64,000 nt of DNA from Candidatus Bathyarchaeia archaeon (GCA_049515895.1 JBEKTQ010000001.1:64001-128000); one strand, 5' to 3'. Shown: positions 41,848 through 45,001, counted from the first letter of the stretch. Made by a program: numbers and translations. The notes: generated by a model from the letters alone, not told the origin.

Positions 41848-43077
41848 TTGGCTATGTGGCGGTTGGGGTTCTTCTTCCATGACATTGCCTTCGGATTGCT
41901 AACCGTCTTTATACCACTGTATGTGGTAGCGTTCAAGAACACCAGTATCTTAGGCGGGCCACTGCTTGCTCTTGGCGTCATGACTTCAATAGCGATTTTC
42001 TGCTCGATTCCCGCCTCGTTTCTCTGGGGGTACCTCTGCGACGCTACCCGTCACTACAAAATCTTCATTCTCCTCGCTTTTGCTTCGATAGCCACGATTC
42101 TTTTCCTCATGACGCTTCCCTTCGCTCAGAACCTAATCGTCTTTGTCGTCTTGTACGTGGTCATGCAGATGCTTCATGTGGCGCATGAATCGCCTAAAAA
42201 CGTGCTCGTCACCGAGCATTACAGCCGCAATGATTGGGAAAGAACATTCGGGATTTATGAGGGCATCACGGAAATGGGAACCATTGTCGGTTTAGCAATC
42301 GGGATATTTTTGTTTGCGTCTGCTCTTAGCTCTTCGTTGTTGTCGACCTACACGCTTTATCTTTGCAGTGGCTTAAGCGTGGTGGCTTTGATTCTGGCGG
42401 TGCTGTTGGTCGCTGACCCGTTGCTCATTTTTGAGCGGCGGCTGGTTGGTATTGAGAGAAAAATGGATTATGCTAATCGTGGTTTGGAGGGTTCATCGAA
42501 GCTTATGGATGGACTTCCCTGGAAGGGGTCGCTTAAAGAGGAAAGTTTCGCTGGGTTCGCCACAGCAATAGTTTTGTTTGCTCTTGCAACCAGTCTCTTT
42601 TTCACGCCTCTGCCCATCTTTCTTAGGCAGGGTTTACATTTGTCTACAAGTTGGGTTTATGTTGCGTATATTTTAAACTCTGTTGGCGGGACAACAGGTT
42701 ACTTCCTCATCGGTCGCCGGGCGCAGTCAATGGACATAAGAAAGCAAATGCCGCGTTTTGTGCTTCTACGCAGCATACTTATTTTTGCGCTTGTCGGCGT
42801 TATAGTGCTTGCTTTCGAGCCTACAATCATGACGGGTATCCTGCTGATTTTCATCGGTTTCGCTTACGCCATTTTCTACATAATGATGCTTTCCCTCTCC
42901 ATGGAGGTTATACCTCAGGGAAAAGCTGGGCTTTTCGACGGTATGGTCGGTTTAGGATCAGCATTTGGTGCTTTCCTTGGGCCATTTCTTGCATACAATC
43001 TGCATTATACGGCAACGTTCGTCACTGCAGCTCTCGTTTTCTTAGTCGCCTTCCTTGCCTTGAAACTGTTACGATAA
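41848..43077 (+). CDS. MFS transporter
   Basis: ~12 TM in two halves; WGYLCDATRHYK motif A-like loop. Confidence 0.85.
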   Translation: MAMWRLGFFFHDIAFGLLTVFIPLYVVAFKNTSILGGPLLALGVMTSIAIFCSIPASFLWGYLCDATRHYKIFILLAFASIATILFLMTLPFAQNLIVFVVLYVVMQMLHVAHESPKNVLVTEHYSRNDWERTFGIYEGITEMGTIVGLAIGIFLFASALSSSLLSTYTLYLCSGLSVVALILAVLLVADPLLIFERRLVGIERKMDYANRGLEGSSKLMDGLPWKGSLKEESFAGFATAIVLFALATSLFFTPLPIFLRQGLHLSTSWVYVAYILNSVGGTTGYFLIGRRAQSMDIRKQMPRFVLLRSILIFALVGVIVLAFEPTIMTGILLIFIGFAYAIFYIMMLSLSMEVIPQGKAGLFDGMVGLGSAFGAFLGPFLAYNLHYTATFVTAALVFLVAFLALKLLR

Positions 43078-43340: not shown

Positions 43341-44783
43341 TTATTCTGTGTGGACTCTGTAAAGGTCGATGTCTTCACGCATTGCTGGTGTTAGTTCAAG
43401 GAAATCTCTTACTGCCCGCACGATGTCTCTGCTCTGAGTGACGTATCTGCCGACGATTAGGATGTCTGCGTCCTGTTCTAAGGCTTCCTTAGCTGTTTCC
43501 GGCACGATTCCGCCTGCAACTGCAATGAGGAGTTTCTTGTTAGGGAAAGCTTGGCGTATCATTTTTATGCGTTCGAGTCCGCAGGTTCTGCCGCTTTCTT
43601 GGTCGATGCCTCTGTGAAGGATGACAATATCCGGTAAGTCCTTAAGCGATTTCAGCTTTCCGAGAACGTCTTCCACGTTTAGCATGTCGATGACCGCGTA
43701 GATTCCCATGCGTCTGGCTTCTGAAACGGTTGCGTCAAGGGTCTCTGGGGGTGCTAAGCCCGCTGCGACAACTGCGTCTGCCGTGTCTTCGTATGCGATG
43801 TCCACTTCAACCTTGCCTACATCAAGCGTTTTGAGGTCTGCAATTATAAATTTGTCTTTGGCTGCTTGCCGTAGCTCGCTGATCACTTTTGTGCCGTAGC
43901 GTTTGATCAGTGGGGTTCCGGCTTCAATGATGATTCTGTCGCTTCCCGGAAGTTGTTCAAGAACCTTCTTTGCCGCTTCAAGTGAGGGCGCGTCAAGTGC
44001 AATTTGTAGGTATGGTGGTCTCCACAGGCGTGGCACTTTGAAGCCCATTATCGGGTGCTTTGAACGGTCTTTTTCGTAGATGATCTTTTCGTACGACGGA
44101 TACTTCTTCAGTGCCCTCTGAAGCGCCATTTTCGTTGCGCCGTAATTGTACTGATAAATCCTTCTATAGTCGGCTGCTTGGGGATGAATAAAGACGCTGC
44201 AGATTATGACCCAATCGTCAAGATGCTCGCGGGGGATGATTCCCTCTTCAGTTGAATCCGCGATGGCTTTGGCAACCGCCGCTTGCGCGGGACCAAAAAT
44301 TTTTCCCGTGTCCTCCATGTTCTTCACGGTTACTTTGGGCACTATTAGCGTGTGGGGTTTAGGCGGCAAATTTGGCCTAATAACTGCCAGGAGTGGCGTG
44401 TGACCTGCGGAAAGGTTTGTCATCCCATTAGCGAATGCTTGGCCTACCGGGCCGTCCTTGTCGCCGATCATCAAGTCAATGTGCGCAACTTCGTTTCCTT
44501 CCCCGACCAGAGATTCGCCGATTAAGTAAGTACTTTCAGAATCTTCACCCGAGGCATCTGCAATGCCTGTCGGTATGCGGTCAACAATTTCCTTAAAATC
44601 GACATTAAACTCCTTTAACCAACTATAAAGTGTGTCTCTATGAATGTCCATCTCCTTAGCCGTTCCGACTATTGTCGGTTTTGTCGGCTTATTCTTTAGA
44701 TCAACCTCATTCTTTGCTGCTTCCGTCAACACTTTAACAAATTCTTCCCTAGTTTCTGGCTTTTTAGCATCTGTTCCCGACAT
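43341..44783 (-). CDS. fae-hps: Bifunctional formaldehyde-activating enzyme / 3-hexulose-6-phosphate synthase with extra N-terminal HTH domain
   Basis: Fae: [46 protein letters not shown]; Hps: [32 protein letters not shown]. Confidence 0.93.
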
Positions 44784-45001
44784 TTAATTTACCCTCAGGG
44801 CTCTCCTGTGTGCTATCTCGTATATAAAAATGTCGGATGCTTAGAAAAGTATTCGAGGTCGTCGGGGTAGTTTTGGCGTTTTGTTGTCGCTTAGAATTTT
44901 GCTCTATCAGGGGGAGACGCACGTTTTTCTTCAGTGAAAAGATATAGCGCTAAATCTATATACCTTGGAGTTTTAGTTGTTGCATCCTATGAGGCAATCT
45001 G

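Follow-up and report, generated by a model that had tools for sequence, protein, structure and literature searches.

Architecture of the gene and reality of its N-terminal extension

The 64-kb stretch of Candidatus Bathyarchaeia archaeon DNA analysed here (the window; all coordinates are positions within it) carries on its minus strand a gene for a bifunctional formaldehyde-activating enzyme/3-hexulose-6-phosphate synthase (Fae-Hps), in which 85 residues, likely including a helix-turn-helix (HTH) domain, precede the enzyme. The domain order is that of bifunctional Fae-Hps: a Fae domain (Pfam PF08714, E 1.1e-71; TIGR03126, 261.6 bits; PDB 1y5y, E 8.1e-44) is followed by an Hps domain of the OMPdecase fold (Pfam PF00215, E 7.1e-35; matches to the PDB Hps entries 9lj9, 3f4w and 3ajx). 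The NCBIfam equivalog PRK13307/NF009833, a model of 392 positions, aligns through its positions 2-390 with residues 86-479 of the window protein (585.7 bits, cut-off 274). Since this match runs end to end, the canonical Fae-Hps is complete and has about 85 residues ahead of it, and from the match's equivalog level we infer that the window protein would possess both catalytic activities. The canonical methanogen Fae-Hps (PRK13307, ~392 amino acids (aa)) has the same two catalytic domains in the same order, but starts at Fae and lacks the 85 extra N-terminal residues. This agrees with the first-pass annotation of this DNA, which had described ~80 extra residues on an enzyme whose canonical form begins at Fae; the Pfam and PRK13307 alignments give 85, and the HTH-like peptide and acidic linker that it quoted are both present in the translated open reading frame (ORF).

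Start codons, promoter elements and conservation together indicate that the extension is translated and that the long start is real. An in-frame stop codon (TAA) lies directly before the ATG of the 480-aa ORF, and in-frame ATG, GTG or TTG codons ahead of Fae occur at residues 1, 18, 19 and 45 only, of which a start at 45 would cut the HTH; in the relatives, a start codon lies in every case 41-54 codons ahead of the putative recognition helix. A TATA-like box and a Shine-Dalgarno-like GAGGG stand at the usual distances from the ATG of the long form (Table 1). When the first 70 codons are compared with those of 28 relatives, differences at codon positions 1, 2 and 3 number 294, 180 and 813, and codon differences divide into 585 synonymous and 385 non-synonymous ones. 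An artefact, in which translation really begins close to Fae and the open frame ahead of it arose by chance or belongs to a separate small gene joined by mistake, has in its favour the existence of canonical Fae-Hps without the extension and nothing further, and is extremely improbable given the absence of any start codon between residue 45 and Fae, the stop directly ahead of the ATG, the fit of the conserved TATA and Shine-Dalgarno elements to the long form, the 731 matching proteins and the excess of third-position differences. The same start codons, preceding stop, conserved matches and codon-position-3 bias exclude a true start near 44530, a possibility that the first-pass annotation had itself raised.

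Predicted fold of the N-terminal head

Residues 1-72, hereafter the head, were modelled with AlphaFold2 on an alignment of 44 sequences, giving a mean predicted local distance difference test score (pLDDT) of 68.4 and 10-residue block means of 69-85 over residues 11-70. The acidic linker that joins the head to the enzyme has a pLDDT below 50 for residues 73-84 and is the most gap-rich and least conserved part of the alignment. The putative recognition helix, within residues 38-58, contains a near-invariant IHRDTLY-x-W motif, and P9, T37, A42, D50, T51, W55 and F63 are invariant across the head (alignment A1, 44 heads).

Profile searches of Pfam match the window protein to GP3_package (E 1.3e-4), HTH_29 (E 8.9e-4), HTH_28 (E 1.1e-3) and HTH_23 (E 9.2e-3), and among the 44 homologues an E-value of 0.01 or less is reached with HTH_28 in 38, GP3_package in 37, HTH_29 in 35, HTH_23 in 25 and the Fis-type HTH_8 in 8. 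In phmmer searches residues 33-67 match proteins with tandem repeats, for example P0143 (E 2.9e-10), which is itself matched by HTH_28 in Pfam with E 5.6e-20, and the head is therefore linked transitively to HTH_28. Fis/NtrC-type and transposase-type HTHs (HTH_8, HTH_23, HTH_28, HTH_29; phage gp3/2ao9), in which, as predicted for the head, a long helix is followed by the helix-turn-helix, are its best though weak sequence and fold matches, the curated threshold not being reached. The top of the Foldseek list, while non-significant, consists almost entirely of HTH DNA binders, namely Fis, TetR, AraC-type regulators, NtrC4 and homeodomains. Together with the predicted helices, these matches suggest that the head likely adopts an HTH fold.

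The tandem-repeat proteins (P0143, P0144, P0146, P0149 and P0155) are made of HTH_28-like repeats of ~45-60 aa each, with phmmer matching 4-6 stretches per protein, and are the nearest non-Fae relatives of the head.

Phyletic distribution

Residues 1-90 are matched by 731 of 770 candidates drawn from a collection of 5.8 billion proteins, the best 120 of the 731 being 72-87% identical over that region. The matching proteins are nearly all 478-482 aa long and contain Fae and OMPdecase domains; the shorter ones are truncated or frameshifted. The survey across Bathyarchaeia that the first-pass annotation had proposed covered 401 genomes sampled from the class: 249 have Fae, and 127 have the head, always on Fae-Hps. 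Most of the 127 contain a single copy, G102 having two, and the frame is nearly always ~480 aa long, a few matches being truncated or at contig ends. By family the head occurs in 94 of 103 genomes of f1, 10 of 11 of f4, 18 of 18 of f5, the single genome of f6, both of f8 and one of the two of f17, and in none of the sampled genomes of f2 (25), f22 (71) and f24 (16). The genome that holds the window (G000; 3.18 Mb in 53 contigs, with a single Fae gene) gave one match, with no second copy of the head.

An exhaustive phmmer search with the head alone, over 1.8 billion representatives, returned 43 matches, comprising fragments of the fusion, the protein P0129 and the tandem-repeat HTH proteins. 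Stand-alone copies of the head were also considered, and the short phmmer matches turned out to be mostly fragments or frameshifted reads of the fusion. The invariant motif around IHRDTLY-x-W marks the head as a family of its own that, across these searches, occurs almost only on Fae-Hps. P0129, a metagenomic protein of 153 aa that may be truncated, combines the same head with a different C-terminal sequence lacking a Pfam match; were it real, the head would be a mobile module.

Records of the relatives are nearly all labelled Candidatus Bathyarchaeota or Bathyarchaeia metagenome-assembled genomes (MAGs). Contigs with this Bathyarchaeia-type protein are also filed under MAGs labelled Limnocylindrales, Acidoferrum and Methanocella (L080, L107 and L111), probably as a result of binning errors.

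A conserved box in the fae-hps promoter

Upstream of the gene, the heptamer TCCGACA immediately precedes the TATA box and occupies the position of the B recognition element (BRE; Table 1). Of 51 HTH-type loci whose upstream DNA was aligned, 46 have it adjoining the TATA box on the 5' side, at -51..-54 relative to the start codon. In a set of 112 unique HTH-type loci, 105 have CCGACA at a distance of 0-4 nt from the TATA box, and six of the remaining seven deviate by a single base. The combination of CCGACA with a TATA-like box at 0-4 nt occurs once in all of G000, at fae-hps. In five further genomes from four families it occurs 1, 1, 1, 2 and 3 times, the fae-hps promoter always being among the occurrences, and a reversed-pattern control in these five gives 0-3 per genome. 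The families f4, f5 and f8 show further boxes as inverted TGTCGGA at -81..-85 and -123..-126, and the genus of the window gene as direct copies at -83 and -108. Three loci have an arginine at position 54 of the putative recognition helix and variant boxes are found in all three, which hints at a link between helix and box.

By itself TCCGACA is present at 329 sites in G000 (61 of them outside crude ORFs), about the number that base composition predicts, so that genome-wide enrichment is absent. Six other copies lie at most 150 nt 5' of a gene, those for AlaRS, a NusA-like KH protein, A-ATPase subunit E, a PQQ-repeat protein and two unknowns; we read these as chance occurrences. TCCGACA was also considered as the general BRE of the lineage and rejected: the 3.18-Mb genome has a single instance of it beside a TATA box, and no such bias is seen among the hexamers that precede TATA-like boxes. 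We likewise rejected, as a general explanation, the idea that the inverted distal copy serves a divergent promoter as its BRE: a T-rich stretch follows it in some f5 loci only and is absent in f4.

Table 1. Features of the HTH-Fae-Hps gene and its promoter in the 64-kb window
Feature	Position	Strand	Basis
HTH-Fae-Hps gene, 480 aa + stop codon	43341..44783	(-)	ORF list, Pfam, NCBIfam, neighbours
Predicted N-terminal domain, residues 1-72: basic arm 7-12, helices 12-29, 38-44, 49-58, 63-69	44568..44783	(-)	AlphaFold2, alignment
Predicted helix-turn-helix proper, residues 38-58	44610..44672	(-)	AlphaFold2, alignment, HTH_28/29/23 matches at residues 41-61
Acidic, variable, low-confidence linker, residues 73-85	44529..44567	(-)	AlphaFold2 and alignment
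Fae domain (formaldehyde-activating enzyme), residues 88-246	44046..44522	(-)	Pfam, NCBIfam, PDB
Hps domain (3-hexulose-6-phosphate synthase, OMPdecase fold), residues 257-460	43404..44015	(-)	Pfam, PDB
Shine-Dalgarno-like GAGGG, 8 nt 5' of ATG	44792..44796	(-)	GAGG column conserved in relatives
TATA-like box TTTTTATATA	44821..44830	(-)	Read from sequence; kept in relatives' alignments
Proximal box TCCGACA, BRE position directly 5' of TATA box, candidate operator	44831..44837	(-)	Conservation, genome scan
Second box CCCGACG at -83, a single mismatch from NCCGACA	44860..44866	(-)	Exact CCGACA in closest relatives L003-L005
Third box AGCGACA, CGACA core kept, at -108	44885..44891	(-)	CGACAA block conserved in genus

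Ribbon-helix-helix variants and plain forms

In other families a different extension is found on Fae-Hps, in 42 of the 401 genomes (31 of 71 in f22, 5 of 6 in f19, and several small families), and none of these families overlaps with those having the HTH type. A profile of 25 such extensions matches the ParD antitoxin 3kxe (E 1e-4), 8c24 (E 1.5e-3) and the CopG/Arc/MetJ entry 5ceg (E 6.3e-3), and single sequences match Pfam RHH_1 below cut-off with E 1.4e-3 to 8.4e-3. In the structural model the N-terminus is extended and helices span 16-27 and 34-49; its top Foldseek matches are ParD and NikR (root-mean-square deviation 1.1-1.6 Å; non-significant, with E at least 2.4). The ParD profile match, the near-threshold RHH_1 matches, the model and the Foldseek list therefore identify this extension as a ribbon-helix-helix (RHH) domain of the CopG/Arc/MetJ/ParD kind. 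The RHH-type loci of these other Bathyarchaeia families are L032-L038, L040, L152-L171 and L189.

The promoters of these genes have a box of their own: GTGACAC or GTGTCAC is present in all 28 scored loci (two further loci were left unscored, and one had too little upstream DNA), the usual layout being one distal copy and, 12-15 nt ahead of the TATA box, the palindrome GTGACAC-N6-GTCACA. CCGACA occurs in 5 of these 28 promoters, which we judge to be about chance level. Among 50 HTH-type promoters, 47 contain CCGACA and none GTGACAC, and genes without an extension (25 rows, 23 distinct places) have no GTGACAC and a single chance hexamer (TGTCGG). Such plain Fae-Hps, in open frames of 394-411 aa, occur within Bathyarchaeia as well. 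RHH-Fae-Hps probably represents a second, independent fusion of this enzyme to a regulator.

A quick maximum-likelihood tree (IQ-TREE) of 47 enzyme cores places all eight RHH forms in one clade (SH-aLRT 99); a second group takes in 31 of the 32 HTH forms, all but that from f17. Two exceptional genes nest inside the HTH clade in this tree and group together. In L048 (G127:C5, of the same genus) residues ~13-80 are deleted, such that about residue 12 leads straight into the linker, and TCCGGCA, a mutated form, stands in place of the box; L051 (G102:C94, a second copy) has a degenerate motif with QLD in place of HRD and is without the box. Both appear to fit the pairing of domain and box.

A possible self-regulating enzyme

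In light of the above contextual connections, we propose, with somewhat better than even confidence, that the window gene encodes a self-regulating enzyme and repressor of the PutA, BirA or RbkR kind, that is, a trigger enzyme. An intact enzyme and an HTH-like putative DNA-binding domain are united in one polypeptide, and the gene's own promoter contains a candidate operator that is conserved, unique in G000 in its setting beside a TATA box, and of a type that switches with the type of domain. The enzyme core would convert formaldehyde and tetrahydromethanopterin (H4MPT) to methylene-H4MPT, and would interconvert hexulose-6-phosphate with ribulose-5-phosphate and formaldehyde. The 72-residue head, held on the flexible acidic linker, may bind the TCCGACA boxes of its own promoter. 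Proteins bound on the BRE of archaeal promoters usually repress; because the proximal box overlaps the BRE and adjoins the TATA box, a head bound there would block TFB and TBP and repress transcription of its own gene. Fae is a homopentamer, and the PDB entries of Fae contain five chains each (10 chains in two entries for 1y5y/1y60). Through a probably oligomeric enzyme several tethered heads could thus reach two or three boxes, 25-42 bp apart, at once. Of these steps we infer the DNA binding by the head, the repressive sign and the multivalency, the last through Fae oligomers being plausible.

That occupancy of Fae or Hps by substrate or product changes DNA binding is a speculative extension of the proposal, and one that we hold tentatively. 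Docking of the head (residues 1-72) on the core (residues 86-480) gave a score of 0.00, with the mark at 0.32, and counts neither way. A bolder version, which we regard as possible though doubtful, is that Bathyarchaeia twice and independently made Fae-Hps a metabolite-sensing repressor, once with an HTH and TCCGACA and once with an RHH and GTGACAC; the oligomeric enzyme would bridge two or three operator sites across the BRE and TATA box and let go of them when formaldehyde, H4MPT or pentose or hexulose phosphates occupy the active sites.

Several observations weigh against the self-regulating enzyme. The window protein lies below the Pfam gathering scores (GP3_package 22.5 bits for a required 29.4, HTH_29 19.7 for 28.1, HTH_28 19.4 for 25), and the Pfam HTH matches of the 44 homologues likewise appear sub-threshold, those to HTH_28 reaching E 2.7e-5 at best. 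A PDB profile search gave no significant match (best E 0.024, to the phage protein 2ao9, and 0.42 to the NtrC HTH), Foldseek returned no match at E<=0.001 (best E 1.6), and the model of the head is of moderate confidence (pLDDT 68). At the promoter, 17 of 100 shuffles of the 64-kb window produced at least one match to the box with one mismatch allowed; one box in the window is therefore non-significant, and the weight rests on its conservation. No other target gene is apparent in G000, where the fae-hps copy alone among the 329 TCCGACA sites adjoins a TATA box. In the enzyme tree each domain type, like each box type, is found in what amounts to a single clade, and the covariation of domain and box therefore rests on few independent events. 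It could reflect separate, lineage-specific regulators; as for the box, a different factor may use it, or it may be a special kind of BRE.

The alternative that survives best is that the head, though HTH-like, does not bind DNA and serves in assembly, in localisation or in docking to a partner from H4MPT or pentose metabolism, the box being read by a separate factor or acting as the BRE of a TFB paralogue. The sub-threshold family matches and non-significant fold matches speak for it, as do the correlative character of the domain-box link, confounded as it is with phylogeny, and the identity of the best Pfam match, GP3_package being a phage terminase small-subunit family. We nevertheless consider it unlikely, given that an unrelated classic DNA-binding fold (RHH; ParD, E 1e-4) occupies the same place in other families, that this second fusion has its own palindromic promoter boxes at 28 of 28 loci, and that loss or decay of the HTH is accompanied by loss or decay of the box (L048, L051). 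This alternative is further disfavoured by the restriction of the TCCGACA-TATA arrangement to the fae-hps promoter genome-wide in G000.

Less probable still is that the head binds the boxes but activates, recruiting TFB and TBP beside the TATA box, or that it mainly controls other genes with autoregulation being secondary. Binding immediately upstream of the BRE is known for archaeal activators, and distal boxes do extend up to ~125 nt upstream; however, the proximal box lies 1-4 nt from the TATA box and on the BRE itself, where the usual outcome is repression, and no other promoter of G000 has the box-TATA arrangement.

For the self-regulating enzyme itself, the suggestion of the first-pass annotation has gained comparative support from the TCCGACA box of the gene's own promoter and from the RHH fusion with its own box, but the HTH matches remain sub-threshold. 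Its HTH is likewise borne out as HTH-like by the AlphaFold2 helices and the Pfam matches of homologues, with every match below threshold and Foldseek non-significant; the AlphaFold run that it had recommended predicts helices 38-44 and 49-58, at medium confidence only (mean pLDDT 68.4).

Relationship to known systems and implications

Catalytic proteins with an N-terminal DNA-binding domain that repress their own operon according to metabolic state are known from bacteria: PutA combines an RHH domain with proline dehydrogenase and pyrroline-5-carboxylate (P5C) dehydrogenase, BirA an HTH with biotin ligase, and NadR is a further trigger enzyme. PutA parallels the RHH-type Fae-Hps of the other Bathyarchaeia families. 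However, neither the enzymes nor, as far as tested, the DNA-binding domains of PutA, BirA and NadR are homologous to those of HTH-Fae-Hps, and they act at bacterial sigma-70 promoters, whereas HTH-Fae-Hps would act at an archaeal BRE and TATA box. The bacterial formaldehyde-responsive regulators HxlR and FrmR are small DNA-binding proteins that control formaldehyde or ribulose monophosphate (RuMP) pathway genes; unlike HTH-Fae-Hps they are stand-alone, belong to different folds and families and are not fused to an enzyme.

The closest precedent for an archaeal trigger enzyme is RbkR, the riboflavin kinase/regulator, which like the window protein is an enzyme with an N-terminal HTH-type domain and whose operators, including one at its own gene, were predicted by comparative genomics (PMC5397151). 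RbkR differs in being a CTP-dependent riboflavin kinase, unrelated to Fae-Hps, with a winged HTH, and in having a multi-gene regulon with experimentally shown DNA binding and control by CTP and FMN (PMC5397151). For Fae-Hps the candidate target is its own promoter only, as read from sequence.

No account of Fae-Hps with a DNA-binding domain emerged from full-text literature searches (supplements excluded). In the databases, hundreds of entries with no name beyond 'bifunctional enzyme Fae/Hps' contain this domain of DNA-binding type without annotation. Bathyarchaeia are among the most abundant uncultured archaea of peat, soil and sediment, and to our knowledge almost nothing is known of their gene regulation; residues 1-72 and the TCCGACA at 44831-44837 form a concrete candidate pair of regulator and operator that can be tested without culture. 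The natural swap of HTH and RHH on one enzyme, each with its own promoter box, provides a rare built-in control and bears on how enzymes gain regulatory roles. If the coupling to metabolites were true, it would be the first archaeal link of formaldehyde or pentose-phosphate status to transcription, and it might supply archaeal synthetic biology with a formaldehyde-responsive part. If the double origin were also true, Fae-Hps would be the first archaeal sensor of formaldehyde or pentose-phosphate supply and a case of natural convergent evolution of trigger enzymes.

Gene neighbourhood and additional observations

Downstream of fae-hps lies a gene for a major facilitator superfamily (MFS) transporter (41848-43077) that is convergent to it, and fae-hps is therefore monocistronic. 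The surrounding genes, for aIF2-gamma, S6e, the MFS transporter, an M32 carboxypeptidase and a DUF996 protein, are unrelated or housekeeping. In G000, which is 100% complete, the best match to TIGR03127 (6-phospho-3-hexuloisomerase) reaches 69.7 bits, with a cut-off of 160, and lies in a 394-aa frame with two SIS-like matches (G000:C5:106781-107512, minus strand); in G000 this partner of Hps may have diverged or be absent.

A further Fae fusion is found in PDB 8ub7 and 8 further entries, where a 290-aa chain named 'Avd' has a Fae domain at residues 127-286 (E 2.7e-43) and is present in five chains per entry; it looks like a pentameric Fae fusion with no bearing on HTH-Fae-Hps.

The genus-level promoter alignment contains two further conserved blocks between the distal and proximal boxes, one CGCTAAAA-like and one TTAATA-like, at 44871-44878 and about 44851-44857 of the window on the minus strand. 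Outside the window, two families of repeated ~80-nt stretches contain TCCGACA (G000:C21:43123, 43694 and 49638; C8:109082, C19:58414, C21:45072, C44:22 and 7212); rather than operators, these seem to be mobile sequence or gene starts present in several copies.

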